From Candidatus Uhrbacteria bacterium (lineage in GTDB: Bacteria; Patescibacteriota; Patescibacteriia; UBA9934; GWF2-40-263): a stretch of DNA of 64,000 nt. A program made the position numbers and the translations under genes. Below are positions 3,422 through 45,587 of the stretch, one piece after another. The stretch covers positions 22,505 through 86,504 of the forward strand of contig JACRJU010000003.1 of NCBI GenBank assembly GCA_016219925.1, read 5' to 3'. Positions within the stretch are counted from its first letter, which is position 1. The number at the start of each line of letters is the position of its first letter. The notes beneath the pieces were generated by a model. The model did no database searches and had not been told where the DNA came from. It worked only from the letters and a program-made list of their open reading frames with translations.

Positions 3422-4698
3422 GGACTATGTGGTCACAACGATTGCTTCTGTTGAGTATTTTTTTGCTTCCTTGGCAAACGCTTTGGATTTTTTCCGTTGC
3501 CACGATCGGGGGAACTCCGGTTCCATACGGACGTTTTTCTCTTTATGGAACGCAGATTCTTCTTTTGTTGGCCGCGGCCCTTAGGGGTCGAGCGGAATAT
3601 CGAGTCGATTCGCGTTTTGTGATTCAAGGAGGATTTTTTATTTTGGCCGCGGAATTTTTTTCGCTGGCTTTTACGCCATTTTTCAAAATCGGCCTCGCCC
3701 ATGCCCTCCAATTAGTTTTTGCTTTTGTCTTGTTGTCGCTTCTGCTTGATATGCGCACCGACCTCAAGCGAGTTGCTTTCGCGTTTATATCAGGTCTTGT
3801 GATTTCCGCTGGCTTGGGTTTCTGGCAAGTCATCATCGGAAGCTCTTCCGCCGCGACTCTTTTTGGTTTATCAGCTCAACACGCGGCGGATCTTGGCACG
3901 GCCGTTGTCGAGACGACCAGCGGTCGAATGTTACGCGCCTATGGATCGTTTCCGCATCCGAATATTTTTGGGGGATATTTAGCCGTGAGTCTCTTGACTC
4001 TGGGATGGTTGCTTCGGTTTATGCGTACACGTTTGGCACTATGGGTTTTTGCGATCCCCGTCGTTATTTTGGTGAGCGCTTTTATTTTGACATTTTCTCG
4101 CGGGACATGGCTCGCTTTTGCCATAGCCAGCGTTGTTCTTTTCGTACAGATGGGTTTGTATCGCCGACTTCCTTCAAGGCGCGCCATAGGGATGATTGGC
4201 CTAGGAGCGATCACAGTTTTTTCTATAGCCTTTTTATTTAATGATCAGATTTTTGCGCGCTTGACCGCGCATGGCCGTATTGAAACAATCTCCATCATAG
4301 AGCGCACCTCCCAATACGCGGATTTTCGTGATCTCTTTTTATCTCACCCGATTTTCGGGGTGGGCGCGGGCGGATATGTGTTTGCGCTTTCGCGCGTTCA
4401 TCCGGGTGGGCAAGCGTTTAATTATCAACCCGTGCACAACGCTTTTGCCCTTGTGGCCGGGGAGCTTGGGCTTGTCGGCTTGGCCGCTGTGCTTTATCTA
4501 ATTTTTTGCATCGCGCGGTTATGGAGGACAAGCAAGAAAACTGCCGGTGGGATATTCAGCCTATCTTTGGGGGCTACGCTCATTGTTATCAGTCTGTTCG
4601 ATCACTATCTCTTTTCGCTGTGGCCCGGATTAGCGCTTGTTGTTCTGGTCATCGCGTTTATCGTTCAGTGGTCGCAGACGTTTATGGAACAGTCTTGA
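3418..4698 (+). CDS. O-antigen ligase/polymerase-like (Wzy_C family) polytopic membrane protein
   Basis: 426 aa, about 10-12 TM helices, FSRGTWLAFAIA motif typical of Wzy_C/O-antigen ligase proteins. Confidence 0.55.
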   Translation: MRTMWSQRLLLLSIFLLPWQTLWIFSVATIGGTPVPYGRFSLYGTQILLLLAAALRGRAEYRVDSRFVIQGGFFILAAEFFSLAFTPFFKIGLAHALQLVFAFVLLSLLLDMRTDLKRVAFAFISGLVISAGLGFWQVIIGSSSAATLFGLSAQHAADLGTAVVETTSGRMLRAYGSFPHPNIFGGYLAVSLLTLGWLLRFMRTRLALWVFAIPVVILVSAFILTFSRGTWLAFAIASVVLFVQMGLYRRLPSRRAIGMIGLGAITVFSIAFLFNDQIFARLTAHGRIETISIIERTSQYADFRDLFLSHPIFGVGAGGYVFALSRVHPGGQAFNYQPVHNAFALVAGELGLVGLAAVLYLIFCIARLWRTSKKTAGGIFSLSLGATLIVISLFDHYLFSLWPGLALVVLVIAFIVQWSQTFMEQS

Positions 4699-4778: not shown

Positions 4779-6702
<1,924 letters not shown>

Positions 6703-12589: not shown

Positions 12590-15500
12590 ATGAATAGTGA
12601 TCGCAAACAATTTCGGCGTTGGGTGGGTGCGATAGGAGTGGTTCTTTTTGGATTCGTTCTCGTGATTCCGATTTTTTTGGCTCGTCCAGCTCTTGCGGTC
12701 GGAACAGAACAAACGGCGCTCGCGGGCGCACAGGCCGAGGTGACGTGTCATTCCGCTCCCTATGCTCCGCCTTGTATCGGCCAGCAGATTAAAGATGTCG
12801 CAACTATTCTGGGTGACCGCATTGTTCAGCCGACGTTTAAGATCGCCCTTGTCCAAGGACTTTTGAATATCTCTCAATTCGTCGTGAACCGTTTGGCTTA
12901 TGAAGCCGCACTTATCGTCGCTAACGGAGGACCGGGACAGGGCTCCTTGTTTTATAAAAAATCCGCTCTTCAAGGATTTAAAGAATTTGGACTTGAAGCG
13001 GCCGGCGAAGCTGTAGCCGACTTGAGTGACGCGCTCAATAGTAGTTTGGGGACGAAGTTTGATTTGTGTCTGCCGCCCGGTGCCGGATTCACGCTGGGTC
13101 TTCAGATCGGGATCGCGCAAAAATATCAACCACAGAAACCCCGCTGTGACATCAACGAAGTGGTGAATAATTGGTCAAGCTTTGTGTCGGATGCGTACAG
13201 CACCGTGACGGATCCTGATAAAGCCAGTCATGCTATTCTTTCAAAATTTGCCGAATCGCTTCAGCCGGGACGCAACGAGTTAAGCGCTTCGGTTAAGCTC
13301 AATATTGAATTGCAAAAAGAGGTTGCAGAGAAGAAACAGGCTGAGATCACTGAACGCACAACAGAAAAGCCCGCAGTGAAAGACGTCAAGGATCCCGTAA
13401 CCGGAAAAACGAAAACGCCGGCAAAAGTTGCCGAGAATGATTTTTTGGACAAGATCAAAAAAGCCGTGACAGGCGAGACCACCCAGCTTAAAGCGCAAGA
13501 CCTTGCGGGATTTGGGGATGCGATGAGTGGTCTAGCCCTCACAGCCGCTTCGACGTTTACCAATACCCTCCTGTCGCAACTGTTCAACAAAATTTACAAA
13601 GGATTGTTTGACGTGAAACCAGACAGCAAAACATCTTTCAATGTTGAAGCGGTAGCGGATCAAGGACAAAATCCAGAGCAATTTTCCAAACTCTTTGCGA
13701 CGACACCCATTGCCACAGGGGATTACAATGCCCTGACAGAATTTGTTGTGTGCCCTCCGCAAGGCGTTGCCAATCGCGGTCTGAATAACTGCGTGATGGA
13801 TTCGAATTTCCTTTCGGCGATCTCTCGGGGCAACTCGGGTGCGCCTCTTACCGTTCAGGAGGCGATTGATCAGGGGCTCATCAGCGGTAGTTGGCCGCTC
13901 ATCTCGCCGTCAGATTTATCCAAAAATCAAGATCCTTTGTGCTATACCTATGGATTCTGTTACGGCAACCTGGTGAAACTTCGCAAAGCGCGCGTTCTGC
14001 CGATCGGCTGGGAGCTTGCGGCTTTGAATAATAAAGTTTCCAAACCGAGCAGCTTGCAGGAGATCATCAACAACTTCAATTCCTGCAATAGCTTCGGAGC
14101 CATCGATGGCGAGCATCCGTTCTGTCACCTGGTCGACCCTAACTGGGTACTTAAATATCCTGATACCCAGTGCCGCGCGACGGTGAACGGCGAGATCAGG
14201 CTTACGGCGCTTAGTCCGGGGCGACAAAGCGTCTGTGCCGACGCGCCGAGCTGTCTGGGAGAAGACGGTTCGGGCAAGTGCGTGGAGGGCTATGGGTATT
14301 GTGTGCGCGAGAAAAACGTGTGGCGGTTTCGCGGCGATGAATGTCCGGCACAGGCCGCTGGGTGTCTTGCCCTGACGAATACCCAAACGAACGACCGCCA
14401 AGCTTACACGATCAACACGGTTGATTTTAGCGTTTGCGGACAGCAAAACGCCGGGTGTCAGTGGTACCGAACAAACAAAAATCTTTCTACAGCCGGGACG
14501 CCCACTCTTACAGATGATACTTATGAATGGTTAGTGGCGGGTGAAAATTATAACACGACAGGGCCGACAGACCGAGGGGACGATTGGAAATTTGATAAAA
14601 ACGGAACTTCTACTCCACGCGTTTCTTATGTTGTGAACACTCCCGTGCGTTACTCCTATGAAGATCGCCTGTATCTGACGCGTGCGGTTCAGAGTTGTTC
14701 GCAAAATGATGCAGGATGTTCCGAGTTGATCGCTGGAGCAGGAGGATCCATCTTGAATTTGATTCCAAATCCAAGTTTTGAGATTGACGAGAACACCGAT
14801 GGCATTCCGGATCATTGGCTTCCGCAGAATTTGGCGGCCAATAAGATTATGATTGATTCTTCAAAGCCGGCTGCTCGCGGGAAGAACGTTCTTAGGCTTA
14901 TCAACGTGCCCAATAACGCCGCTCTTGTTCAACGTTTTGATCTGCAACCGAATCAGTTTTATACCTTGAGTTATTTCTTTGCTTCAGTTGCGGCCATCAA
15001 TGCTCCAGGAACGGTTCGGATGCAGTTTTCGGGTCCAAACGGCACCCCCGTGAGTTATAGCGGACTGTCTATTTCAGGTTGTACGGTTTCAAATGTCTTT
15101 GCGGGAGAGATTGATTCATCCGTGAGCGCCACTTCGGATTGGCAGCGGACGAGCTGTACCTTCGGAGTTCCATCACCAGCCTCACAGCTCAAATTGATGA
15201 TTGAATCGCCCGGTGTACGCTACGACGGTTTTCAGCTCGAGCCGCGTGAAGTGGCCAGTGACTTTGTGGAGGGGATTCATATCGGAAACGCCCAGACGCA
15301 ATACACGAAAGTCGCGCCCGCCTATTTGAAGTGCACAGGTGCGACCACAGATTCAGCCGCCTGTAACACGTATGCACAGATGTGTCAGGCCCAGGATGTT
15401 GGCTGTAATCGCTACACGCCGGACAATGGAGATCCGTCCGTGCCCGCCATCGCAAACGATTTGGATGCGTGTCCAAGCGAATGCGTGGGATATGATACGT

Positions 15501-18500
15501 TCAAACAAGAAGCCACAACGTATGATGACGAAGCATTCCCCGTTTATTTCATTCCTGCAAAAGCCAAGGCATGTACCGCTGAACAGGTGGGCTGTGATAG
15601 CTTCACGCGTTTAAGTGCTGCACAAGAAGGCGGCGAGCGCGTAGAAACTTATACGAATTTGCGCGCATGCGTGACGCCGGCGATGGCCGATGGTTCGGCC
15701 AACAATAAGACAACCGCGACGTTCTTCACATGGGAAGGATCAGACAATGCGGGCTATCAGTTACGCTCGTGGACGCTTCTTAAATCCAACATGCCGGACA
15801 ATCAGTCCATGGCGCAGCAATTGGCGGATGTTTCACTGACAGAGACCAATATCGGCCAGGCTCCCTGTACGAAGTGGCGAGTCAATGGTCCAAGCGAATT
15901 GATTTGTGAAGATTCCGTCGGAGGACATCTGAACGAGGTGGCGCACAACACGGTCTGCGACGCGCACGAAGATATTTTCACCAATCCAAATTGCCGCGAA
16001 TTTTTCGATACACAAGGAAAAGTTCATTATCGACTTTTTTCTGACACCGTCACCGTGAATGAGGAATGTGCCCCCTATCGAAAAGATACCTCCACACTTT
16101 CCGATTGCAATAATTCCGGGGGTTTTTGGGATGTCCAGACGGGTTTCTGCCGCTACTTCGGACTCTCGAGTGAAAGCAAGAGTTGTCCGGCCGCGGTGTC
16201 TGGTTGCCGTTCTTATACGGGTGGAACAGGCAGAAATTCCGCGACTTTGCTTTCAGAAACATTTGAGAGCGGGTCGTTTGTGGGATTCAAGCCGTATAAC
16301 GTTCAAGGGAATGCCTCATTGCTTATTAGTAATGAGTCTATTGCAACCGACGGACATTCCTTGCGCGTTGCGGTGAATAACGGCACCGCGGGAGTTTCAA
16401 CCACCCAGTACTACTTAAACAACGCAAACGCAAATGTTTCCTACGATCCAACCAGCGACGCGACAAAAGCCGCGACGTGTACGGCGTTTAACAATGGAGC
16501 ATTCGCACACAAAATCTCGCCAGCGGGTTGTGAGATTGATGCCGGCAACAATGGAAGTGTCGAATGTGTGGTCGGGCCCGGGGAGCACAGTTGCGGTCCG
16601 CTCGTGAATAAACTCGTTTCCGGCAAAACGTTCCTGCTTGAGTTCTGGGCAAAGGGCGATGGGAATCTGCGCGTGCGATTTGTCGGAAACGGCGGAGCCG
16701 TCGGCGGCGTTTCGAATAATCTTTCCGATCCATTCCCGCTTACAGCCGATTGGCGCGTGTATAAGCTCGGGCCACTGGATTCAAGTTCCATGAGCGCGAT
16801 CAACAAAGATAGCGTTCTGGTGTTTGATGCCGGTCCCGGAAAAACTTTTTATCTCGATAATCTCGTGCTGAAACAAGTGGAAGAAAACGTAACTATCGTG
16901 AAGGATTCCTGGGTCATTCCATCTACGTGCGACAGCACTCCCGCAGGTATCAACTCGCCGCAATACTATTTGGGTTGCCGCGCGTACAGCGATCAGATGG
17001 GCGCGGCTCATTCGTTGTATCGCTTCTCGCGGCTGTGTTCGGACAAGGTCGTGGCCTGTCAGGCCTTCTTCCAAACTCAACAGTCCAAATCTCCTTACAG
17101 CCGCGCCTACAATGTGCGGTGCGCCAAAGGGACAAACGGCGATTTATCCAAGCCCACAGTAGTCAATCAGGCGACAGCGTGTACGGTTGATAGCGTCGAG
17201 TACTGCACGATCGCAGCCGGCCGTTCGTTCTGCACGTTTGATTACGATGGGTTGTTTGGCGAACTCCTGCCGCGTCAAGGCGATTTTGGAATCGTCTATG
17301 GTCCGGAAACCGTGTTGACGCCTTCGGACCGCATTGTGTATTTCGTAAACGACGGTTCGAAAAACTGCGACTCTGGCCAAGCCGGATGTCAGGAAATGGG
17401 TAAACCAAAATACGCGCAGGATCAAAAGAAAGTTGACGGGTTTGAGAGCGTTTATTTCATCAACAATCCCGAGCAGTACGGACAGACCCTTTGTGACAAC
17501 GATGCGCTATTCTGTCAGGAATACGGCTCAACAAAGGACGGCAATTTCTATTTCAAAGATCCGCTCAAAAAGACGTGCGATTATCGGACGAGTGTAGAAA
17601 TTAACGGAAAGAAATATAGCGGTTGGTTCCGGACAGGGACATCGGAGTCTTGTTATCCGGGGTATGTGGTCGGGGGAGATCAAGCCGGCATCTGGAAAAA
17701 TGGAGATAGCTCTTATGATGGTTGGGTTGGAAGTTGTGATCAAAGCCAGGACCGTTGTACGGAATTCATCGATATTGTGGATACGGAAGGCGGCTTGAAA
17801 AAAGACGGCACCTCTTATTACTTCATCAACAACGATAAGTTGACCGAGGCGGGAACCGCAAGTCCAACGGCGTGCAAAGGACAGATAAGTCAGAAGCAGG
17901 GATGCGCGCTATTCAATAACCGTAGCCGTTCTGAACTGAATTACAACGCGAGCGTTTCCTATGTCCTTTCCACACATGCCGATGTCTTGCTCAATAAGGC
18001 GCCCAACGCGCTTGTTGATCCGGTGAGCTGTGCGCAGTTAAACGGCGGAGTGTATACCATTTCTGATACGCAGAAGGCTCTGCTCGGGCTTGAGGATTTA
18101 AATCCTGGGCAAGACGGGACGCAAGTGCCGCTGTGCAACACGCGATGTCAATATGTCACGTCATCTGATGATTCGATTCTTTCAAACATGGGCCAGTTCT
18201 ACCAGTCTTTCTCAGACCATGTCAGCTATCTGGAGCGCGCGTGTCTCATGGATTCCGATTGCCCCGCGCTTCAAACGAAAAACGGGCAAGTGGTGAAAGG
18301 ATCCTGCACGAAAGACTATGTTGATGATAACTACAGGCTTTCCAATGATTCCAACACCGTGTTGAAGGTGAACCGCGACCGCAGTTGTAGCGCGTGGCTG
18401 GCGTGCGACAGTTCTCGCACCAGTTTCAACGCACAGAGTAATAAGTATGAACCGATTTGTGATTCGATTAGCTTGTGCGTGAAGGGCGGGAACGTCGGAC

Positions 18501-21500
18501 AGAGTTCGGCGTGTACGCAGTGGGATCCTCGCGCGCCGGAGATTTTGACGAACTACGGTTATTCCAAGCGCGACGTGAACTGGAACGGGTATGAATTATC
18601 TGGGTATGCCATTCCTAATCAACTTCCGGTTGAGTTGTACGATCAGTTTAACGTCAATCCAGCAAAAGCGTGTACAAAAAATGGCGCGTTCGTGAAAAAG
18701 GACGGTTCAGCTTTGCCGGCGAGTGAAAGTCCGGTGGCCTGTGGCGATAATACAGAATGTAAGGGGGGCGGAGTCTGTCAGATAGCTTCGCAAGATTTTC
18801 GTTTGGTTTACAACGCCGGTTCGTGTGATTCTTCTGCGGGCAACGGCGGGGCGTGTCGGGTTGGGCGCTGTTCGATCACCCAAAACGCGTGTTCAAAAAA
18901 TGCGGATTGTTCCGGGGCTGGAAATACGTGTTTGACGGGCGCCTGTCAGGCGGTTGCGACCAAGAATTGTCAGAACGCCGACTGTTCGTGCACATCCGCA
19001 GACGCCAATAACAACAAGAAGGCCAATGCTTGCGAGAATGCGAAGACCGGCGCGAATAAAGACGCCTCTGTTTGCGACCCTGTTGCTGGCGTTTGTGTGG
19101 ATCATCTGACGACGGGGGCGGGTGCCGTAACGTGCGGCCCGGAGAACGCCTGTGTGGACGGCGCCAGCTGCATTGATTCCGCGACGACCGCCCACGGAGC
19201 TTGTTTCAACAATCAGTGCCTGACCAACATTAAGGATACGGACAAGAACGGCTTTGCCGATCCGATTCAAATCTCTTCCGCGCTTGGCCAGTCGTGTCGA
19301 GGATATCCTGAGGCGGATTCGCCATTTCCGTCCAAAGTGGTTGATCAGTGGAGTACGGCCAAAGAGAAACCCGAAAAAGGACTCGATATCAACACGTCTC
19401 TTAATCAGCTCAAGTCATGGTCAACGCCCTATACGTTCAAAACGGGATACGAGGATTCCAGAACATGCGCGGTTGATGCACAGGGGCATATCACAAACTG
19501 CGATTGCAGTTACGATAAAATTTCGTACGGCAAAGGAGCGATTACGCGTTACGAAAATGTCGGGGCATCGCCTAATGCCACGCAAGGATTCTGTTTAGGC
19601 GGCCCGCATGAAGGTTTGCACTGTGCGACAGATGAGGATTGTTCCGAAGGGGATAAGGACAAGGGAACCTGTCTGCGTTTGCAAAAACAGGATACGATTT
19701 TGGGCTGGAGTGGGTTCTGCATTGAAAAAGACTCCTCCATTCAAATCAACGCCAGCACAGATCCGGAGGATCGCGCGTGTTTGACGTGGCTTCCTGTTGA
19801 TCAGCTTTCTGGAGCGACGGATTTGTACGCGAAGTATACGAGTGCGGGGTTTGCTGTCGATCAAACGTTGTATTGTGCGGATATTCAGCCTTCCTATGAC
19901 GTAAAGACGACTGCTGTCGGTTGCGGAGAAATTAAGGGACCAGGGTATTGCGGTTGGGATCATGATGATGGGGTTGGCGATGCCAAAGATAATATCGGTG
20001 ACGACGATCCCATTATATTCTGTCCAGACGGATTTTTCGGCGTCATGACGATGTGCGATGAGCTTTCAGAGTCTGGCCATACGATCGCCAATAGTTCAGA
20101 CGGCGATTGCGAAGAAGGAGATAACGATTATCCGTATTTCTGCGTCCCCTATCAATCGAAAAAAACTGAAAACAATCAAACAACGGATTGTATTCCTCCG
20201 ACAGATGCGAATTGGCAAACGAGGGATAATTCTGGACACCCGACCTATCTGTATGTTGACGGTGGCACGTTTGAAACTAAATATAATACATACAAAAATT
20301 GCGTCGTGAAGGGAATTTCTCAAGAGCACATCAGTAAATATTTGTTTAAAGAATCAAACCCATCTCAAGTATCTGAAAACGGTCCGGGGAGTATTTACTA
20401 TGGTTTGACGTATAACTTTGACCAACACGCTTCGTGCAAGTCTCTCGTAGAAACTTCTACGAGCAAGCTTCAACCCGCTGGCAGTAAGAATGTCTATAAT
20501 GTGGCGTGGACGGATCGTTTATGGAAGGCCGGATATACGATTCAGCCGGACAATTCTCCAGAGTTTAGCTATCGATACGCGACATCTCCATCGCTTTTTG
20601 GGCGCGCGGTTCCCCTTGCGACATTGACGGAGAAGCCTGACCCTTCCGCCCCTGTGCTCTCCATGTGTCGCAAAGGTCAGTCAGAAAAGTTCCAAATTCG
20701 CAATCCGCAAAATCCTGATGAGTTTATCTGCGCGCAGCAACAAGATGGCTATCAGCTTAGTGCCGGCGATGCGAGGGGGTTTTATCAGGTTGCGCTTAAT
20801 AGCACCGGTTTTGCGCCGCCAGATGAAAAGTTTTGCAAGGACGGTGGTTGTGCATGTCCGACTAAAAAAACCGTTGAATGCAACTGGCAGAAAAATCCGC
20901 AAGTTCAGAACGATCCTGGACGTCCAGTGACTTGCGGCGACCGAAGGTGTTCTAATAACAACAACGTGGCGTGTGACAGCGAAGACGATTGTCCGAACTG
21001 GGATCCAAAGAGTCCACAGGCGTGCGGAATTGGTTTTCCAGCATGTCCAGCAGGTCAGAACTGTCATTCCCAAATTTGGGGAAATTCAGGAACCTGTTCT
21101 CCTGATTGTAATCCGCAGGGTCAAAGCGTGTGTATAGGCGGACCAAAAAATGAGGAGGCATGTCAGGATGATGGCTTCTGCCGCAACAATCAATGCTTAC
21201 AGGGTGAGTGCGTATCAACGCAACTTCTTCCCGGAGGGACTCCTTTGTCGAATCTTGAACCTCCAGAAAAAGCCAAAACCCGCTTGCAGCAACTTTTCGC
21301 GCTTTCGCTTAATCTTGTGACATTTAATGATGGACTGGTAAACAATCCCGGCGAGGCTGGAAATTCAACGGGGACGTTTAGTGATCCTAGTTCCATTGAT
21401 AAAGGCGCTGCGTGGTATTGGGATGCGCGTTCGCAAGGGGACATCACGGAAAAACCAACACCACCAAAAGTTATTTCGCTCGGCGCATGCGTAGGTTCGA

Positions 21501-22219
21501 AGTGTCGGGAAGGGAAAGAAGGAACGTTTACGGTCAATGACCAGGATTCGGGAAACATTGAGGGAAAGGTTTCGAAACGCGCGACTGTGAGTTTCTTTAC
21601 CTACGCCAACTCCAACCAGATGCCTATCCGCCAGATCGTGGTTGACTGGGGAGACGGGAAGAATTTCGGGGCAATGCCATGGCCGACGGACGCACAGACG
21701 GGTTCGATAGCTAAAGACAACTTTTATAAGAACCATCGAGGGGTGAATGCGTCGGGCCAGGAAATTTGTAGTTCGGCTCCCGATGAGTTTGGCAAAACGT
21801 TTGATGCGTGCAGTTCGAGCTTTGTCGTGTTCAACCATGATTACGTGTGCACGCATGCGGATATCGCCAATAAGCTGGATGGACGCGCGTGCAAGTACGC
21901 CTCCGACGGGCGTCTGCTTAATTCGCCGTGCACGGACGGGAAGCGATGTATTTATCAGCCGCGCGTGAACGTGCAGGATAACTGGGGTTGGTGCACGGGA
22001 TTCTGCAATGCCGGCGCTGATGGGACGAATGGGTGTTTTGGGGGGGATGAACAACCAGGCCAAAATGTTTATAACAACGAGTGCAATATTGATAAGTGTC
22101 CCAGCAAAGCGGAGGATGGAGCACAGGGCACAGCACCATGTCCTGATAAAACGGCAGGGACCGTGAATAATCCTTGGGTAAATTTTGACGGAACAGTTAT
22201 CATTACTCCGGAAGAGTAG
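12590..22219 (+). CDS. Giant (3209 aa) membrane-anchored, cysteine-rich extracellular protein with CBM4/9-like jelly-roll modules
   Basis: Uninterrupted 9.6-kb ORF with an N-terminal signal anchor (VVLFGFVLVIPIFLA) and hundreds of Cys in CxnC pairs. Two segments (about nt 14764-15060, NPSFEIDENTDGIPDHW...YTLSYFF; and about nt 16230-16890, FESGSFVGFKPYN...FLLEFWAKGDG...YLDNLVLKQ) carry the hallmark pattern of CBM4_9/galactose-binding-like carbohydrate-binding modules. The C-terminal region is Cys/Gly/Asn-rich. Confidence 0.75.
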   Translation: MNSDRKQFRRWVGAIGVVLFGFVLVIPIFLARPALAVGTEQTALAGAQAEVTCHSAPYAPPCIGQQIKDVATILGDRIVQPTFKIALVQGLLNISQFVVNRLAYEAALIVANGGPGQGSLFYKKSALQGFKEFGLEAAGEAVADLSDALNSSLGTKFDLCLPPGAGFTLGLQIGIAQKYQPQKPRCDINEVVNNWSSFVSDAYSTVTDPDKASHAILSKFAESLQPGRNELSASVKLNIELQKEVAEKKQAEITERTTEKPAVKDVKDPVTGKTKTPAKVAENDFLDKIKKAVTGETTQLKAQDLAGFGDAMSGLALTAASTFTNTLLSQLFNKIYKGLFDVKPDSKTSFNVEAVADQGQNPEQFSKLFATTPIATGDYNALTEFVVCPPQGVANRGLNNCVMDSNFLSAISRGNSGAPLTVQEAIDQGLISGSWPLISPSDLSKNQDPLCYTYGFCYGNLVKLRKARVLPIGWELAALNNKVSKPSSLQEIINNFNSCNSFGAIDGEHPFCHLVDPNWVLKYPDTQCRATVNGEIRLTALSPGRQSVCADAPSCLGEDGSGKCVEGYGYCVREKNVWRFRGDECPAQAAGCLALTNTQTNDRQAYTINTVDFSVCGQQNAGCQWYRTNKNLSTAGTPTLTDDTYEWLVAGENYNTTGPTDRGDDWKFDKNGTSTPRVSYVVNTPVRYSYEDRLYLTRAVQSCSQNDAGCSELIAGAGGSILNLIPNPSFEIDENTDGIPDHWLPQNLAANKIMIDSSKPAARGKNVLRLINVPNNAALVQRFDLQPNQFYTLSYFFASVAAINAPGTVRMQFSGPNGTPVSYSGLSISGCTVSNVFAGEIDSSVSATSDWQRTSCTFGVPSPASQLKLMIESPGVRYDGFQLEPREVASDFVEGIHIGNAQTQYTKVAPAYLKCTGATTDSAACNTYAQMCQAQDVGCNRYTPDNGDPSVPAIANDLDACPSECVGYDTFKQEATTYDDEAFPVYFIPAKAKACTAEQVGCDSFTRLSAAQEGGERVETYTNLRACVTPAMADGSANNKTTATFFTWEGSDNAGYQLRSWTLLKSNMPDNQSMAQQLADVSLTETNIGQAPCTKWRVNGPSELICEDSVGGHLNEVAHNTVCDAHEDIFTNPNCREFFDTQGKVHYRLFSDTVTVNEECAPYRKDTSTLSDCNNSGGFWDVQTGFCRYFGLSSESKSCPAAVSGCRSYTGGTGRNSATLLSETFESGSFVGFKPYNVQGNASLLISNESIATDGHSLRVAVNNGTAGVSTTQYYLNNANANVSYDPTSDATKAATCTAFNNGAFAHKISPAGCEIDAGNNGSVECVVGPGEHSCGPLVNKLVSGKTFLLEFWAKGDGNLRVRFVGNGGAVGGVSNNLSDPFPLTADWRVYKLGPLDSSSMSAINKDSVLVFDAGPGKTFYLDNLVLKQVEENVTIVKDSWVIPSTCDSTPAGINSPQYYLGCRAYSDQMGAAHSLYRFSRLCSDKVVACQAFFQTQQSKSPYSRAYNVRCAKGTNGDLSKPTVVNQATACTVDSVEYCTIAAGRSFCTFDYDGLFGELLPRQGDFGIVYGPETVLTPSDRIVYFVNDGSKNCDSGQAGCQEMGKPKYAQDQKKVDGFESVYFINNPEQYGQTLCDNDALFCQEYGSTKDGNFYFKDPLKKTCDYRTSVEINGKKYSGWFRTGTSESCYPGYVVGGDQAGIWKNGDSSYDGWVGSCDQSQDRCTEFIDIVDTEGGLKKDGTSYYFINNDKLTEAGTASPTACKGQISQKQGCALFNNRSRSELNYNASVSYVLSTHADVLLNKAPNALVDPVSCAQLNGGVYTISDTQKALLGLEDLNPGQDGTQVPLCNTRCQYVTSSDDSILSNMGQFYQSFSDHVSYLERACLMDSDCPALQTKNGQVVKGSCTKDYVDDNYRLSNDSNTVLKVNRDRSCSAWLACDSSRTSFNAQSNKYEPICDSISLCVKGGNVGQSSACTQWDPRAPEILTNYGYSKRDVNWNGYELSGYAIPNQLPVELYDQFNVNPAKACTKNGAFVKKDGSALPASESPVACGDNTECKGGGVCQIASQDFRLVYNAGSCDSSAGNGGACRVGRCSITQNACSKNADCSGAGNTCLTGACQAVATKNCQNADCSCTSADANNNKKANACENAKTGANKDASVCDPVAGVCVDHLTTGAGAVTCGPENACVDGASCIDSATTAHGACFNNQCLTNIKDTDKNGFADPIQISSALGQSCRGYPEADSPFPSKVVDQWSTAKEKPEKGLDINTSLNQLKSWSTPYTFKTGYEDSRTCAVDAQGHITNCDCSYDKISYGKGAITRYENVGASPNATQGFCLGGPHEGLHCATDEDCSEGDKDKGTCLRLQKQDTILGWSGFCIEKDSSIQINASTDPEDRACLTWLPVDQLSGATDLYAKYTSAGFAVDQTLYCADIQPSYDVKTTAVGCGEIKGPGYCGWDHDDGVGDAKDNIGDDDPIIFCPDGFFGVMTMCDELSESGHTIANSSDGDCEEGDNDYPYFCVPYQSKKTENNQTTDCIPPTDANWQTRDNSGHPTYLYVDGGTFETKYNTYKNCVVKGISQEHISKYLFKESNPSQVSENGPGSIYYGLTYNFDQHASCKSLVETSTSKLQPAGSKNVYNVAWTDRLWKAGYTIQPDNSPEFSYRYATSPSLFGRAVPLATLTEKPDPSAPVLSMCRKGQSEKFQIRNPQNPDEFICAQQQDGYQLSAGDARGFYQVALNSTGFAPPDEKFCKDGGCACPTKKTVECNWQKNPQVQNDPGRPVTCGDRRCSNNNNVACDSEDDCPNWDPKSPQACGIGFPACPAGQNCHSQIWGNSGTCSPDCNPQGQSVCIGGPKNEEACQDDGFCRNNQCLQGECVSTQLLPGGTPLSNLEPPEKAKTRLQQLFALSLNLVTFNDGLVNNPGEAGNSTGTFSDPSSIDKGAAWYWDARSQGDITEKPTPPKVISLGACVGSKCREGKEGTFTVNDQDSGNIEGKVSKRATVSFFTYANSNQMPIRQIVVDWGDGKNFGAMPWPTDAQTGSIAKDNFYKNHRGVNASGQEICSSAPDEFGKTFDACSSSFVVFNHDYVCTHADIANKLDGRACKYASDGRLLNSPCTDGKRCIYQPRVNVQDNWGWCTGFCNAGADGTNGCFGGDEQPGQNVYNNECNIDKCPSKAEDGAQGTAPCPDKTAGTVNNPWVNFDGTVIITPEE

Positions 22220-41773: not shown

Positions 41774-41882
41774 GTGTATAGAACATCCAAAATTTGCGCC
41801 AATTCGATGGCATCGACTTTGCATCAAATTTCGGATGTCCTTATCTTTAATTTCAATGAACTTCTAGAAAGGTGATTCTCTG

Positions 41883-41970
41883 TGGCGGAGGGGGTGGGGC
41901 TCGAACCCACAAGCCCTTGCGGGCGCTAGTTTTCAAGACTAGTTCCTTAACCAATTCGGAGCACCCCTCC
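41883..41970 (-). tRNA. tRNA-Ser (TGA), type II
   Basis: The reverse complement gives GGAGGGG...CTAGT-CTTGAAA-ACTAG (anticodon TGA), a variable arm, GGTTCGAGCCC T-arm, and CCA encoded. Confidence 0.85.
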
Positions 41971-41974
41971 GTGT

Positions 41975-42463
41975 CTATTTACCATAGTGTTCCTCGGCAT
42001 GGCAATTAGGACAGATTAATTCCAGATTTTTAAGATCATTATGTTTTCGATCTCGATTTATGTGATGCACATTTAGAATTTTTTCGTTGTCGTAACCGCA
42101 TCTTTGACATTTTTTTCCTCGTTCATCCATGAGTCTCATTTTGAGTCCCTTTTGATAAATGACTTTATCTTTTGGACGATTCAGCTTGTAAAGGAGTCCT
42201 GTCCTTTGCTTATTAGCACAACGTCGGCTACAGGTTTTTTTGTTAGCTCCCGCCAGGATCGGTGTTCCACAGATAGTGCAAGGTTTTTCCTTTCTGCATG
42301 AAATTCCATAGCAGCGGGCACTGCAAAATGCGTTTCCTTGATTTTTGTGCAACTCGACAGGTCTTCTGTATATAGATTTATTACAGATGCGACAGACCGT
42401 ATTCGGATGACGTTGGTGTACAAGCATAAGGCTAGTATACCAGGAGATGCTGTTTTTTTTCAT
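41975..42463 (-). CDS. HNH endonuclease with multiple CxxC zinc ribbons
   Basis: 162 aa; four or more CxxC pairs and a C-terminal HNH motif NVHHINRDRKHNDLKNLELICPNCHAEEH; GGAGAGG RBS; directly adjacent to the two tRNA-Ser genes. Confidence 0.7.
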   Translation of the reverse strand: MKKNSISWYTSLMLVHQRHPNTVCRICNKSIYRRPVELHKNQGNAFCSARCYGISCRKEKPCTICGTPILAGANKKTCSRRCANKQRTGLLYKLNRPKDKVIYQKGLKMRLMDERGKKCQRCGYDNEKILNVHHINRDRKHNDLKNLELICPNCHAEEHYGK

Positions 42464-42583
42464 TCTTTCGCCACCTCTCCCTGGCTGGACGTGGCCAGAG
42501 TACGTGATTTGCCGATTATCCGCAAGGGTTGTTCATGCGGTTTGTCTTGTGACCTCTTGTCGGGGATGCTAAAATAAAGCGGT

Positions 42584-43096
42584 ATGGACGAAGACATCAT
42601 GGAACCGCCGGCAGAGGATATAGATATTGGGGATCCTTTGCTTGCGTGGGAAGTGGATGAATATCCCAAACACCAACGATCCAAAACGTGGTACGTTTTG
42701 GCTTGCCTCGTTGGCGTAGCTTTGATTGTGTACGCCATTGCCACAGCAAACTTTCTTTTTGCGGTGATCATTTTGATGATCGGTGTCATCATGCTCCTAT
42801 CGAGCTTCAAAGAGCCGGATCGTATTCCTGTTGTGATTACCAATACCGGCGTGCTCATTGACGACACTTATTATGATTACGATCACGTCCGAGATTTTTC
42901 CTTGATTTATGATCCTCCGCACTCGAAACTTCTTTACATCGATTTTCATTCTCGGCTTCAGCCAATTTTGCCGATTCCTCTTGAAGACACGGATCCGAAT
43001 GAAGTCCGTCGCGCGCTCTTGCCGTTTTGCGCTGAAAACCTCAAGCGCAATGAAGAACGATTGACAGATATTGCGCGTCGGATGTATAAACTCTAA
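42584..43096 (+). CDS. Hypothetical two-TM membrane protein with cytoplasmic C-terminal domain
   Basis: 170 aa; acidic N-terminus, two TM helices (VLACLVGVALIVYAIA / FLFAVIILMIGVIMLL). Confidence 0.4.
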   Translation: MDEDIMEPPAEDIDIGDPLLAWEVDEYPKHQRSKTWYVLACLVGVALIVYAIATANFLFAVIILMIGVIMLLSSFKEPDRIPVVITNTGVLIDDTYYDYDHVRDFSLIYDPPHSKLLYIDFHSRLQPILPIPLEDTDPNEVRRALLPFCAENLKRNEERLTDIARRMYKL

Positions 43097-43112
43097 CGAA
43101 ACATTATTTTTT

Positions 43113-43133
43113 GCGCTCGTAGCTCAGTTGGAT
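43113..43133 (+). repeat. Duplicated 5' half (acceptor plus D-arm) of tRNA-Arg followed by a GATCTGAT/ATCAGATC hairpin
   Basis: GCGCTCGTAGCTCAGTTGGAT matches the first 21 nt of the intact tRNA at 43202 (one mismatch). Confidence 0.6.
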
Positions 43134-43201
43134 CTGATAGAATCAGATCACATCGCCTTGCTCGGAAGTGAAATAATGTCCATTCTCGTTTGCTCATTCT
43201 T

Positions 43202-43278
43202 GCGCTCGTAGCTCAGCTGGATAGAGCGTCAGCTTGCGGAGCTGAAGGCCGCAGGTTCAAGTCCTGCCGGGCGCACCA
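43202..43278 (+). tRNA. tRNA-Arg (anticodon GCG)
   Basis: Cloverleaf: acceptor GCGCTCG/CGGGCGC, D-arm GCTC-AGCTGGATA-GAGC, anticodon stem TCAGC/GCTGA with loop TTGCGGA (GCG), T-arm GCAGG-TTCAAGT-CCTGC, CCA encoded. Flanked by a 16-19 bp inverted repeat (43170-43185 / 43288-43303). Confidence 0.8.
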
Positions 43279-43308
43279 CAAACAAGCGAATGGACATTAT
43301 TTCATTTC

Positions 43309-43474
43309 TCTCGCTTCGTCTCGTGATAGAGCGTCAGCTTGCGGAGCTGAAGGCCGCAGGTGTTGATCTGGCTTCGCCAGATCAGGGTCGACTGCGTCGC
43401 TCGGCAAGATGTTCATTTGTTGATGACATCTTGCTCTCGCTATCCTCGCCGACCAAGTCCTGCCGGGCGCACCA
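43309..43474 (+). pseudogene. tRNA-Arg-derived copy with degenerate 5' end and a 93-nt insertion in the T-loop
   Basis: GATAGAGCGTCAGCTTGCGGAGCTGAAGGCCGCAGG (identical to the intact tRNA from the D-arm to the T-stem), then a 93-nt insert with two hairpins (GATCTGGC-TTCG-GCCAGATC and GCAAGATGT...ACATCTTGC), then AAGTCCTGCCGGGCGCACCA. Confidence 0.55.
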
Positions 43475-43535
43475 CAAAAAACCCGCTGATGGCGGCGTTT
43501 TTGTTTTGGGCATCTTTTGTTAGGATATTGTTGTT

Positions 43536-45587
43536 ATGGCGTTTCATCTTGCATCTCCCATTGGAGATCTCCCCGGCATTGGATCAAAGGCACAGAGGGA
43601 TTTCAAAGCACTCGGCCTGAAAAGCCTGCGCGATCTGTTGTTTTACGTTCCTTTTCGGTATGACGATTATTCAACCACCCGACCGCTTGCACGTGTGCGG
43701 GCAGGAGAGCCTGTGACCGTCACGGGCACCATTACCTCGATCACTTCACACCCGTCAAAAAATAAAAAGATGACGCTTGTGGAAGCAATGCTCGAAGATG
43801 AAACCGGGACTCTTCCGATTGTCTGGTTCAATCAACCCTATTTGGTTCAAACGATTCGACCCGGCACAACCCTTTCGCTCGCGGGGACTGTGGACTTTCG
43901 TTACAAACGCGCCATGGTCAATCCCCTACATGAACCCGCTGGCACTCAGGTCCTGACGGGCCGCATCGTTCCGGTATACGGACTTTCCGGATCGCTCAAA
44001 ATGCACCGGGTGCGCACCGCAATGCGTAGCGCGCTCAGCGCGGCTCATGAGCTTGTTGATTGGCTTCCAAGCGAGATCAAAGAGGAAATGCCATTGCCGG
44101 ATTTGCAAACGGCCGTAAGATCCATCCACTTCCCTGAATCAAAAGAAGCTCTTGATCGGGCGATCGAGCGGTTTAAGTTTGACGAATTGTTTTTGCACCA
44201 ACTGATGTTTGCCTGTGTGCGTCGCGAACGCAAAGCTCACTCGGCTTTTGAAATTCCCTTAAATCGTTCAACGCTTCAAACGTTTGTCGCCTCTCTGCCG
44301 TTTTCGATTACACAAGCGCAGCGTCGCGCGGCTTGGGAGATCGTTCAAGATTTGACTAAACCTCATCCGATGAATCGGCTCTTGCAGGGGGATGTGGGAT
44401 CGGGAAAAACAGTTGTCTCGGCGATTGCGGCGAGCGGGGTTATCCGCGACAAGCATCTCGTCGTGTATTTAGCGCCGACAGAACTGCTTTGCGCACAGCA
44501 GTATCAGGCTTTTTGTCGATGGTTTCCTGAGGAAAAAATTGCGTTGTTTACGCGTTCTCAAAAGGTTCTTTCTGGGGAAGCGTTGGGTAAAGAAGACCTC
44601 ATCGAGCGTTTGAGGGCCGGAGAAGTTCGTGTGGTTATAGGAACTCATGCGTTGTTTGAGCAAACCGTCGAACTCCCCCAACTAGCTCTTGTGATCATTG
44701 ATGAGCAACAACGTTTTGGAGTGGCCCAGCGCCACGCCCTTTTGGAAAAGATCCGTTCGGTTTCACCGCATCTGCTGTCCATGACCGCCACGCCTATCCC
44801 GCGTTCACTTGCCCTGACGATTTATGGTGATCTGGATGTTTCCCTTATTGATGAGATGCCTGTGGGTCGAAGACCCGTTGGCACCGCGGTCGTTCCTCAT
44901 GAACACCATGAGGCGATGTGGACGCATGTGAAGAGCCAAATCGAGCAAGGACATCAGGCCTATGTGGTGTGTCCGCTTATCGATCCTTCAGATGTTTTGG
45001 GAAGTAAATCGGTCACAGAAATGCGTGCACAATTGGGCAAAGGTTCATTGATGGGGGCGCGATTGGGCGTCCTGCACGGGAAATTAAAAAGTGAAGAGCG
45101 TTTAGAAGTCATTGAAGATTTTCGGGGAGGTCGTTTGGATGCGGTGATCTCAACAACGGTTGTCGAAGTGGGGGTGGATGTTCCTAATGCCACGGTCATG
45201 GTTATTACGGGGGCTGAACGGTTTGGTTTGGCCCAGCTTCATCAGTTGCGCGGCCGCGTGGGTCGGAGCGATCTGCCCTCATTTTGCTATCTCTTGCCGA
45301 ATCAAACGACCGCTCTCGCGTTGGAGCGGTTGCGGTGTTTGGAAAAGACCCATGATGGTTTTGCTCTTGCGCAAAAAGATTTGCAATTGCGCGGATCGGG
45401 CAATGTGTTTGGGAGCGCGCAATCAGGATTTCCAGATTTTAAACTCGCAACGGAAGCGGATATGGATCTCATGAAAAAAGCGCACGATATCTGCGCGCGG
45501 CTTTTACAAACCCAAACCGATTTTTTGGAGACCCCGCTCATCGCTGAACAACTTTCGGTTGCGTTCGAGGCCGTGCATTTGGAATAA
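43536..45587 (+). CDS. recG: ATP-dependent DNA helicase RecG
   Basis: 683 aa; wedge/OB N-terminal domain; helicase motifs GDVGSGKT (Walker A), DEQQRFGV (DExx), and RGRVGR arginine finger. Confidence 0.9.
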   Translation: MAFHLASPIGDLPGIGSKAQRDFKALGLKSLRDLLFYVPFRYDDYSTTRPLARVRAGEPVTVTGTITSITSHPSKNKKMTLVEAMLEDETGTLPIVWFNQPYLVQTIRPGTTLSLAGTVDFRYKRAMVNPLHEPAGTQVLTGRIVPVYGLSGSLKMHRVRTAMRSALSAAHELVDWLPSEIKEEMPLPDLQTAVRSIHFPESKEALDRAIERFKFDELFLHQLMFACVRRERKAHSAFEIPLNRSTLQTFVASLPFSITQAQRRAAWEIVQDLTKPHPMNRLLQGDVGSGKTVVSAIAASGVIRDKHLVVYLAPTELLCAQQYQAFCRWFPEEKIALFTRSQKVLSGEALGKEDLIERLRAGEVRVVIGTHALFEQTVELPQLALVIIDEQQRFGVAQRHALLEKIRSVSPHLLSMTATPIPRSLALTIYGDLDVSLIDEMPVGRRPVGTAVVPHEHHEAMWTHVKSQIEQGHQAYVVCPLIDPSDVLGSKSVTEMRAQLGKGSLMGARLGVLHGKLKSEERLEVIEDFRGGRLDAVISTTVVEVGVDVPNATVMVITGAERFGLAQLHQLRGRVGRSDLPSFCYLLPNQTTALALERLRCLEKTHDGFALAQKDLQLRGSGNVFGSAQSGFPDFKLATEADMDLMKKAHDICARLLQTQTDFLETPLIAEQLSVAFEAVHLE

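Follow-up and report, generated by a model that had tools for sequence, protein, structure and literature searches.

To our knowledge, bacterial tRNA genes are regarded as uninterrupted outside group I introns, and disrupted tRNA genes are seen as a speciality of archaea and eukaryotes; likewise, no bacterial machinery is known that would splice inserts of the D- and T-loops out of a tRNA, and in archaea tRNA introns are marked by a bulge-helix-bulge (BHB) motif at their junctions. Free-standing homing endonuclease genes occur in tRNA gene regions, and homing without an intron is known. The leaders and trailers of rRNA operons pair into stems that are cut by RNase III, and miniature inverted-repeat elements are represented, for example, by the Correia elements. 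Here, we describe a tRNA-Arg(GCG) locus in a 64,000-nucleotide stretch of DNA (hereafter the window) from a Candidatus Uhrbacteria bacterium (GenBank assembly GCA_016219925.1, contig JACRJU010000003.1, positions 22,505 to 86,504), in which two insertions break up a bacterial tRNA gene and one of them contains a complete copy of that gene.

Among the described systems closest to this locus are the disrupted tRNA genes of archaea, for which three reports describe multiple non-canonical introns, split and tri-split tRNAs, and intron transposition in Thermoproteales (PMC10714607, PMC4390854, PMC3293823). In bacteria of the Candidate Phyla Radiation (CPR), genes for 16S and 23S rRNA contain short insertions or intervening sequences (IVS), which lack open reading frames (ORFs), cannot be classed as group I or group II introns, and are located at the tips or bases of stem-loops; GIY-YIG genes were found in non-intron inserts only, and processing is likely of the RNase III type (PMC11270868). 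Among free-standing homing endonucleases, SegB of phage T4 is a GIY-YIG enzyme (PMC13096335). A full-text literature search, outside which most subscription journals fall, found no nested or hairpin-interrupted tRNA genes in CPR bacteria, and the arrangement presented here is apparently new to the literature.

Results

An intact tRNA-Arg gene nested in a broken copy of itself

All coordinates given here are positions in the window, and the tRNA-Arg locus lies on the plus strand. ARAGORN called 3 tRNA genes in the window, a single tRNA-Arg among them. This gene (43202-43278), the sole intact tRNA-Arg of the window, has the anticodon GCG and an encoded CCA, matches the Rfam tRNA model with 70.5 bits (E 4.7e-15), and is presumed to be the working gene of the locus. 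Three direct repeats connect it to its surroundings. The first (43108-43133 and 43197-43222; 26 nt, 92% identical) covers tRNA positions 1-21 and 5 nt of upstream flank, the second (43220-43256 and 43325-43361) is 37 nt long and 100% identical, and the third (43258-43285 and 43454-43481; 28 nt, 96%) extends from the T-loop to the CCA and 7 nt into the downstream flank. The repeats, the intact gene, an inverted repeat around it, and an insertion had all been noted in an original prediction for this locus, and a repeat finder, ARAGORN, and Rfam recovered every one of them in place.

That prediction took the repeats for a duplicate of the 5' half upstream of the intact gene and a second copy downstream of it. 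While the repeats are real, the separate copies are not, as the pieces on either side belong to a single gene. The 5' piece (43113-43133; tRNA positions 1-21) contains the 5' strands of the acceptor stem and the D-stem and part of the D-loop; it is identical to the inner gene at 20 of its 21 positions and starts where the plain tRNA starts in the related loci L125, L130, and L134. The middle piece (43325-43361; positions 19-54) contains the end of the D-loop, the 3' strand of the D-stem, the entire anticodon arm with GCG, the variable loop, the 5' strand of the T-stem, and T54, and is identical to 43220-43256 throughout (37/37). The 3' piece (43454-43474; positions 56-76), with the rest of the T-loop, the 3' strands of the T-stem and the acceptor stem, and ACCA, likewise equals the inner gene (21/21). 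As these three partial pieces are collinear, overlap by GAT only, and add up to exactly one tRNA, they represent one outer gene that has been interrupted twice. When joined in silico, they were called as tRNA-Arg(gcg) by ARAGORN, both for the window and for L127, the orthologous locus of a distant relative described below. The D-loop of the broken outer gene thus houses an intact copy of tRNA-Arg(GCG).

In the minimum-energy fold of the whole region (-172.9 kcal/mol; z -6.1 relative to shuffled sequences), the outer 5' and 3' pieces pair with each other, and the inner tRNA sits atop the stem formed by the inverted repeat. An Rfam scan of 42600-43900 with E values up to 10 returned nothing credible besides tRNA, and the inserts matched neither an intron family nor any other described RNA family or ribozyme beyond chance.

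An independent Logan assembly of SRR12113407 matches 43332-43535 exactly. This agreement, together with the orthologous architecture of L127 in a different metagenome-assembled genome (MAG), indicates that the structure is not an assembly artefact. The Logan contig (L120) is a short-read unitig that stops exactly within the 37-nt repeat, at window position 43332. Nested tRNA loci whose inner and outer copies are identical will break up in de Bruijn assemblies and go under-reported; the practical consequence is that such loci break short-read assemblies and that tRNA finders report the inner gene only.

The two interruptions are related, structured inserts

The insert in the D-loop (Ins1, 43134-43324, 191 nt) is orthologous to the insert at the same position in L127, and consists of a first hairpin (H1), a junction, a long rod-like stem tipped by the intact tRNA, and a tail. 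The motif GATAGA is present at both of its borders (43136-43141 and 43325-43330), with ATAGA in L127. H1 (43131-43149; GATCTGAT AGA ATCAGATC) is partly made of D-loop bases. The rod is formed by an inverted repeat, of which the left arm (43165-43185) lies on the leader side, while the right arm (43288-43308), on the trailer side, begins 9 nt past the CCA. An inverted repeat of 16-19 bp had been predicted around the intact tRNA; it is present, but measures 21 nt with 95% complementarity. About 7 further pairs extend the rod, 25 pairs of which are conserved with L127, and the loop of this long stem consists of the tRNA gene with a leader of 16 nt and a trailer of 9 nt. The core of the left arm, AATGTCCATTC, is kept in L127 and L129, and the 16-nt core of the inverted repeat is absent from the rest of the 64-kb window.

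For the T-loop, an insertion of 93 nt with two hairpins had been proposed. The two-hairpin insert is confirmed, although it is not a clean addition of 93 nt: Ins2 (43362-43453) is 92 nt long and replaces one T, U55 of the tRNA. Its left junction, GCAGGT/GTTG, carries no second copy of the tRNA 3' segment. A covariance model was built for Ins2, which also has an orthologue in L127. It starts with its own hairpin H1 (43364-43384; TGATCTGG..CCAGATCA), which is followed by an irregular rod of ~25 pairs with a loop of six bases. Compared with L127, the base of the rod (GGGTCGACTGCGTCGCTCGG at 43385-43404 and CTCTCGCTATCCTCGCCGAC at 43434-43453) is conserved, and the distal hairpin H2 (43405-43433) is variable.

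Both inserts share a common plan, in which a first hairpin is followed by a junction with GCTCGG at its end, then by a second, long stem and by a tail starting with CTCTCGCT. The similarity between them is moderate in the window (z 3.7 and 2.7, with 5 and 18 of 1000 shuffles scoring as high) and clear in L127 (z 6.7; 0 of 1000 shuffles). Ins1 and Ins2 are paralogues, of which Ins2 is the version without a tRNA. The palindromes in the T-loop had been thought to be related to the hairpin following the 5' piece; this resemblance holds for H1, but the paralogy encompasses the entire D-loop insert. In the window, H1 of Ins1 resembles H1 of Ins2 and not its L127 counterparts. The H1 hairpins are thus alike within a genome and different between genomes, which points to concerted evolution.

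Several other identities for the inserts were considered and rejected. They do not represent deeper tRNA-derived layers, as local alignments to tRNA scored no better than those of shuffled sequences (p 0.18-0.43). No significant similarity was found between the inner and outer flanks past 5-7 nt, or between the inserts and the flanks. A multicopy mobile element was not supported either: in the window plus about 940 kb of CPR loci, this locus alone contained the inverted-repeat core, the H2 sequence, and the junction motifs, and the Ins2 covariance model matched solely the window, L127, and a truncated locus, L137. A small ORF conserved across the inserts was dismissed as well, since the 77-aa ORF at 43290-43523 is broken in L127 by an insert in the anticodon loop and stops early.

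A promoter-like, near-consensus TTGACA-N18-TATAAA was read from the sequence at 43061-43090 on the plus strand, inside the last codons (..MYKL stop) of an upstream ORF of 170 aa. It is found in the same place in L127, L128, and L129 and is likely the promoter of the whole tRNA unit, in which case the C-terminus of a protein and a tRNA promoter would share bases across lineages. A simple promoter scan missed this site because TATAAA fails its T6 rule, and found no match inside the tRNA unit. The sole terminator-like site of the unit in a simple scan, a hairpin with a T-run at 43483-43510 on the plus strand, lies past the outer 3' end. With one terminator-like site and no internal promoter match, the locus is probably a single transcription unit.

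The nested arrangement recurs at an orthologous locus

RecG homologues were used to fetch contigs of relatives, and the spacer between the gene for the 170-aa protein and that for RecG was compared in eleven lineages. The RecG encoded just downstream of the locus is that of Candidatus Uhrbacteria, and the next closest RecG is 65% identical; for the upstream 170-aa protein, a look-up for closer relatives found no record. Other genes listed in the context of the locus encode a VirB4/TraG-like ATPase, PrgI, type IV secretion system pilins, RadA, and a ComF-like protein.

The original prediction had pointed to a comparison with related genomes as a way to recognize the ancestral state. This comparison recovered the same nested architecture, at the same locus, in L127 (GCA_016208545.1), whose RecG is 61-62% identical to that of the window, which argues against a recent, private scar and agrees with the conservation half of the outcome that the prediction had named as speaking against its scar reading. 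In L127, the outer 5' piece (GCGCTCGTAGTTCA) is followed by a homologous D-loop insert, again with the core AATGTCCATTC, and the inner tRNA. The outer middle piece has an additional 34-nt insert in its anticodon loop, and a homologous T-loop insert at the same spot (GGT/GTTG ... CGAC/C) precedes the outer 3' piece. The acceptor stems of the inner (GCACCCG) and outer (GCGCTCG) copies differ, showing that these are distinct genes; the outer type is that of the working plain tRNA in L136. The D-loop of the outer copy of L127 is truncated, and its pair 27:43 is a T:T mismatch.

In L129/L131, the sister of L127 (RecG 83% identical), the outer 5' piece, the D-loop hairpins, and the left half of the insert have been kept and are followed by one tRNA and a terminator, while L137 begins inside an Ins2-like insert. 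A plain tRNA occupies the locus in L125, L128, L130, L134, and L136, and no tRNA is present in L123. The plain tRNA of L128 is bracketed by an inverted repeat of 18 bp. Lineages of the nested and of the plain type intermingle in the RecG tree, and such a patchy presence among Uhrbacteria at the same insertion site is as expected for a homing-type element. A metagenome scan with the inverted-repeat core plus the tRNA start returned only the L129 lineage again and two chance matches. A phage origin of the tRNA was rejected, as a scan of viral contigs gave protein-coding matches only.

Some relatives showed further peculiarities. In L127, an ORF of 200 aa with a faint match to Transposase_mut (431-1033) lies ~500 nt upstream of the gene for the 171-aa protein, and two tRNA-Ser genes seen there in other lineages are absent from the 7 kb fetched. 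In L110, another Uhrbacteria locus, a 15-nt unit (GTAGCGAACGTACAT) repeated four times in tandem and a 17-bp inverted repeat around ~100 nt lie ahead of a plain tRNA-Arg (about 4000-4200).

Orthology between the inserts of the window and those of L127 is clear, with z 14.8 for Ins2, 12.5 for the left part of Ins1, and 8.7 for its right part (0/1000 shuffles for the Ins1 parts). The consensus fold of Ins2 has 35 pairs, all of which are formed in both lineages. Eleven of these have changed on both sides, compared to only 0-1 in a control in which the partners were shifted by 1-3 columns. The variable parts of Ins2 are its two hairpin stems, and the rod base (GGGTCGACTGCGWCGCTCG and CTCGCTATCCTCGYCGAC) is identical at 17-18 of 18-19 nt.

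The helices of the outer tRNA in L127 still pair, including a D stem, GTTC/GAAC, that is found in none of the 125 working CPR tRNA-Arg(GCG) genes. We considered these changes as candidate proof of selection on the outer tRNA, and rejected them: they are mostly G/C to A/T on both partners, and 2 of the 3 states occur in working tRNAs of relatives. As paired decay of G-C pairs can mimic compensation, the pairing of the outer tRNA was not taken to demonstrate selection. Between the window and L127, 8 of the 12 differences in the outer copy are G/C to A/T, and in both lineages, removal of the insert leaves an outer T-loop of 6 nt without U55. Given this short T-loop, the anticodon-loop insert of L127, and the drift from G/C to A/T, the outer copy looks dead.

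Fragmented tRNA genes and small nuclease genes in CPR genomes

A scan for the anticodon arm, with one genome per species, yielded 119 loci, almost all from CPR bacteria. Near-exact tRNA fragments were found within about 500 nt of 28 of the 125 CPR tRNA-Arg(GCG) genes, with 5' parts located upstream and 3' parts downstream. Among the cases with fragments on both sides, 6 of 7 were collinear, i.e., nested. In examples such as L046, L096, L036, L058, L112, and L109, the inner tRNA is located in differing loops of the outer copy, usually between inverted repeats, and other loops hold extra hairpins. Under a stricter test based on 14-mers, 49 of 311 tRNAs had flanking fragments, compared to about 1.6 expected, and all of these were Arg or Ser isoacceptors.

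Small GIY-YIG ORFs (PF01541) were detected in 11 CPR loci, and in every case a tRNA-Ser or tRNA-Arg gene of the same orientation lay no more than about 230 nt away; as a background, 15.7% of bases fall within 300 nt of a tRNA. A complete form is found in L116 (Buchananbacteria) and L005, where a tRNA-Ser(TGA) gene up to its anticodon loop is followed by GC-rich hairpins, a GIY-YIG ORF, and an intact tRNA-Ser(TGA). A nuclease ORF in or abutting an insert is also present at L112 and, in the case of HNH, at a tRNA-Ser of the window. The exact 13-nt hairpin of the L116 and L005 cassettes, CCGCCAGAGGCGG, recurs in the D-loop of the outer piece of L129. In total, this sequence or its complement occurs 6 times in 5 CPR lineages of different classes (L005 6885, L058 3648, L100 5657, L116 7540, and L129 805, the last equivalent to L131 849), always near tRNAs or within tRNA fragments, where 0.03 occurrences would be expected in 0.98 Mb.

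The HNH gene that had been predicted near the tRNA-Arg locus is present at 41975-42463 on the minus strand (PF01844, E 1.1e-7). Its start codon is closely preceded by an 11-nt sequence (GGAGAGGTGGC, about 42470-42480, minus strand) that matches the 5' end of tRNA-Ser, a match so short that it is suggestive only, and an intact tRNA-Ser(TGA) gene (41883-41970, minus strand) starts 4 nt after its stop codon. The ORF thus has a putative 5' fragment of tRNA-Ser on one side and an intact tRNA-Ser on the other, and the syntenic relative L110 has no HNH gene there. A 13-bp inverted repeat (41784-41796 and 41825-41837; CATCCGAAATTTG and CAAATTTTGGATG) is located in the spacer between two tRNA-Ser genes, and L110 contains a GIY-YIG remnant (2525-2686) ~210 nt from its tRNA-Ser(GCT).

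The survey gave several further observations. In a scan of genome contigs, the tRNA-Arg GCG anticodon arm was nearly confined to CPR genomes. Several loci labelled "uncultured Gammaproteobacteria", one labelled "Bdellovibrionales", and one labelled "Nitrosopumilales" have CPR-like tRNA-Arg/Ser loci, suggesting that these labels may be wrong. In Saccharibacteria and another Patescibacteria genome (L014 3300-3460, L063 7595-7850, and L015 1300-1520), 1-2 copies of a hairpin precede a tRNA-Arg gene; the 5' arm of these hairpins equals the first 10-13 nt of the tRNA (e.g., GTGCCCGTAGAAC TTC GTTCTTCGGACAC), and changes in the stem between copies preserve pairing. In multi-tRNA arrays of cyanobacteria (L060 about 5799-5895, from a Cyanobacteria MAG, and L090 4107-4202, from Cf. 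Phormidesmis LEGE 11477), an insert of 23 nt interrupts the T-loop of a tRNA-Arg(GCG)-like gene at the same spot, following T54 and with U55 missing. No intact copy is present in the 8 kb fetched, and lengths of 96-99 nt are found among several other tRNAs of these arrays. Elsewhere in the window, a single ORF of 3209 aa spans 12590-22219, and the G+C content rises to 0.60-0.64 between 24001 and 30000, compared to about 0.50.

Discussion

The explanation that we favour, and to which we give about an even chance of being right, is that the locus derives, in a form without an ORF, from a cassette that targets tRNA-gene loops and supplies a substitute tRNA, with the inner gene as the one that works. 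Originally, the promoter in the last codons of the upstream ORF would have been followed directly by a resident tRNA-Arg(GCG) gene. The D-loop of this gene would have been invaded by a structured cassette with a complete tRNA-Arg(GCG) at the tip of a long leader/trailer stem, and a paralogue of the cassette without cargo would have come to occupy the T-loop of the dead outer copy. A single transcript would begin at TTGACA-N18-TATAAA (43061-43090) and end at the terminator (43483-43510). In it, the outer 5' and 3' pieces would pair, and a stem of roughly 25-28 bp, comparable to the processing stems of rRNA, would display the inner tRNA. RNase P and a double-strand-specific or 3' trimming activity would free the inner tRNA, and the outer gene would not decode. 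This may be part of a wider habit of CPR bacteria, in which tRNA-Ser and tRNA-Arg genes would receive small GIY-YIG or HNH nuclease cassettes in their loops, an intact copy being left beside the broken one. The Arg locus of the window would then represent the ORF-less stage of a homing-type cycle of gain, loss of the nuclease, and eventual clean loss by recombination between the inner and outer copies, a cycle with which the patchy distribution at one site and the complete GIY-YIG forms of other CPR lineages are compatible. One alternative listed in the original prediction, a small element carrying a tRNA between terminal inverted repeats, came near to this explanation; the repeat, however, is not terminal, and forms an internal stem of a larger, single-copy insert.

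Several points weigh against a cassette of this kind. The insert family is found at a single locus and is not multicopy, so that phylogenetic patchiness is what suggests mobility. In the window, the inner copy equals the outer copy including 5-7 nt of flank, which would require gene conversion or a local origin of the cargo, and a nuclease specific for the target site would be expected to cut an identical inner tRNA gene as well. No nuclease ORF lies in or abuts the inserts; the sole ORF of at least 60 aa starting within 43113-43477 is that at 43290-43523, which is not conserved in L127. A GIY-YIG gene had been predicted nearby, but none was found in the window with motif regexes, with Pfam on 38 ORFs spread across it, or with tblastn using two CPR GIY-YIG proteins. 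The link to the GIY-YIG cassettes is a 13-nt hairpin that occurs in a sister lineage and not in the window, and some of the downstream fragments in the census, reaching from the T-loop to the 3' end, could be ordinary integrase scars. Finally, the rod base of Ins2 is 95% conserved although neutral DNA is saturated between the two lineages, and its stems covary, a pattern that suits a functional RNA better than a relic.

The locus does not stand alone: a distant relative conserves its architecture, about one in five sampled CPR tRNA-Arg(GCG) loci have flanking tRNA pieces, and small GIY-YIG or HNH genes are often found beside such tRNA genes. We tentatively raise the possibility, which we would not call probable, that CPR bacteria harbour unrecognised structured elements that target tRNA-gene loops and either bring their own replacement tRNA or are removed from the RNA. 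If they bring a replacement, this would be a third strategy, besides self-splicing introns and inteins, for life inside an essential gene. If they are removed from the RNA, these would be the first multi-intron, nested bacterial tRNA genes of neither the group I nor the BHB type, and the conserved Ins2 rod would be their functional core, serving as a recognition site, a ribozyme, or a hosted small RNA. For the locus itself, a cassette origin would mean that selfish DNA lives in an essential gene by bringing a spare, and would explain odd tRNA fragments that confuse annotation, while processing of the inserts would add a new chapter to bacterial tRNA maturation.

The main rival, which we consider unlikely, is a conserved composite precursor, in which the outer halves and the rods act as a scaffold holding the inner tRNA ready for processing, the rods behaving like rRNA leader/trailer stems or 23S IVS cleaved by RNase III, or in which Ins2 is a small functional RNA or protein-binding element housed in a tRNA-like frame. 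Such a function would account for the fully kept structure of Ins2, with 11 of its 35 pairs double-changed compared to 0-1 in the slid controls, for its junction sequences, which are identical at 17-18 of 18-19 nt while nearby spacers have diverged, for the conserved 25-pair rod of Ins1, and for the stability of the region's fold (z -6.1). It would also be consistent with the outer tRNA helices, all of which pair in the window and all but the anticodon-stem pair 27:43 in L127, and with the plain tRNA of L128, which lies within an 18-bp inverted repeat as well. Moreover, the Ins1 rod and Ins2 share a trait of RNase III-type sites and IVS, a long, near-perfect duplex that encloses or replaces a loop of a stable RNA, conserved here with covariation, and CPR rRNA genes have short non-intron inserts at IVS sites processed by RNase III (PMC11270868). 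However, a plain tRNA suffices in five related lineages, and L129 has lost the entire right half without harm. Palindromes can also be maintained at the DNA level, by template switching or arm-to-arm conversion, without a function in RNA; the apparent compensation in the outer tRNA is mostly paired decay of G:C to A:T; and no Rfam family was matched at E values up to 10.

Local rearrangement without a mobile element, in which fork stalling or break repair at a tRNA gene that is heavily transcribed and prone to form structures led to a nested duplication and template switching made and kept the palindromes, appears improbable to us. The inner copy of the window, with 5 nt of upstream and 7 nt of downstream flank of the outer gene and otherwise identical to the outer pieces, is what such a process would leave, and the GATAGA at both borders of the D-loop insert, the H1 hairpins that are alike within but unlike between genomes, as local copying predicts, and the absence of a transposase or nuclease inside the inserts are all compatible with it. 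It does not readily explain, however, why the same pair of tRNA positions holds homologous inserts in lineages between which relatives with a plain tRNA fall. In L127, the acceptor stems differ, so that the inner copy is not a local duplicate there, flank similarity past 5-7 nt is not significant, and the insert sequence is derived from neither tRNA nor flank.

An intron-containing or split tRNA, another alternative in the original prediction, is not favoured either. We think it quite improbable that the outer gene works and that the inserts in its D- and T-loops (and, in L127, its anticodon loop), one of which hosts a tRNA gene, are true introns removed from the transcript, in the manner of archaeal multi-intron tRNAs. 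ARAGORN accepts the joined outer pieces as tRNA-Arg(gcg) in both the window and L127, and the anticodon is kept in both. The positions of the inserts, and the presence of homologous inserts at different positions, recall the intron transposition of Thermoproteales (cited in PMC10714607), and the cyanobacterial tRNA-Arg(GCG)-like gene with 23 nt at the same T-loop spot has no intact copy in the 8 kb fetched. Nevertheless, removal of Ins2 leaves a 6-nt T-loop without U55 in both lineages, and no BHB motif was visible on inspection of the junctions. The inserts are too small and misplaced for group I introns, show no group I signature, and match no Rfam intron. The intact inner gene makes the outer one redundant, and the outer gene of L127 combines a truncated D-loop with a T:T mismatch at 27:43.

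Serial integration and excision by a tyrosine integrase at the tRNA gene, with later deletion of the elements, is suggested by the partial tRNA copies beside an intact tRNA, a classic attL/attR attachment-site footprint (PMC3293823), and by several CPR census loci with a lone downstream T-loop-to-3'-end fragment, yet is highly improbable here. The pieces are complementary halves around a 191-nt insert without an att-type core repeated at both ends of an island, no second copy of the 3' segment stands at the left Ins2 junction, and the distances amount to 46-92 nt. A Pfam scan of 38 window ORFs revealed no integrase domain, the structured, conserved inserts are unlike decayed island ends, and no integrase-bearing island lies between the same junctions in the 11 orthologous or syntenic loci examined.

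When compared to known systems, the locus combines features of several without matching any. It shares with attL/attR scars the partial tRNA duplicated beside an intact gene, but its pieces are nested rather than flanking, there is no island and no integrase in the scanned ORFs, and the junctions are incompatible. Group I tRNA introns are located in the anticodon loop, measure ~200 nt or more, and have a catalytic core, whereas the inserts of the window are located in the D- and T-loops, Ins2 is 92 nt long, and no Rfam intron was matched. Like miniature inverted-repeat elements, the locus contains a small, ORF-less unit with a near-perfect inverted repeat and a possible direct repeat of 5-6 bp (GATAGA) at its borders; unlike these, the insert is single-copy, its inverted repeat is internal, and its cargo is a tRNA gene.

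The resemblance to the disrupted tRNA genes of archaea lies in the inserts in the D-, anticodon, and T-loops, in related inserts at different positions, and in fragments near an intact gene with links to mobile DNA. The window, however, is from a bacterial host, excision would leave no canonical T-loop, and the insert holds a whole tRNA of the same identity. In addition, no BHB motif was found by inspection of the junctions and the conserved fold, made without a dedicated BHB search: Ins2 is closed by a helix of 5-7 bp beside H1, without 3-nt bulges flanking a 4-bp helix. The work on CPR rRNA insertions differs in dealing with 16S and 23S genes only, in a paper from which the word tRNA is absent (PMC11270868), and involves no nested gene copy. 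As in rRNA processing stems, the inner tRNA tips a long leader/trailer duplex, a 21-bp repeat with about 7 further pairs; here, the cargo is a 77-nt tRNA, and the predicted stem is located within the insert of another tRNA gene.

Free-standing homing endonuclease genes offer a further comparison. In contrast to these, the CPR tRNA gene itself is split with a full replacement tRNA inside, the Arg locus of the window has lost or never had a nuclease ORF, and the CPR GIY-YIG proteins are merely about 80-90 aa long, without an obvious DNA-binding domain. What they have in common are small GIY-YIG or HNH genes wedged between tRNA genes in the same orientation, a sporadic distribution at the same site, and the absence of a self-splicing intron.

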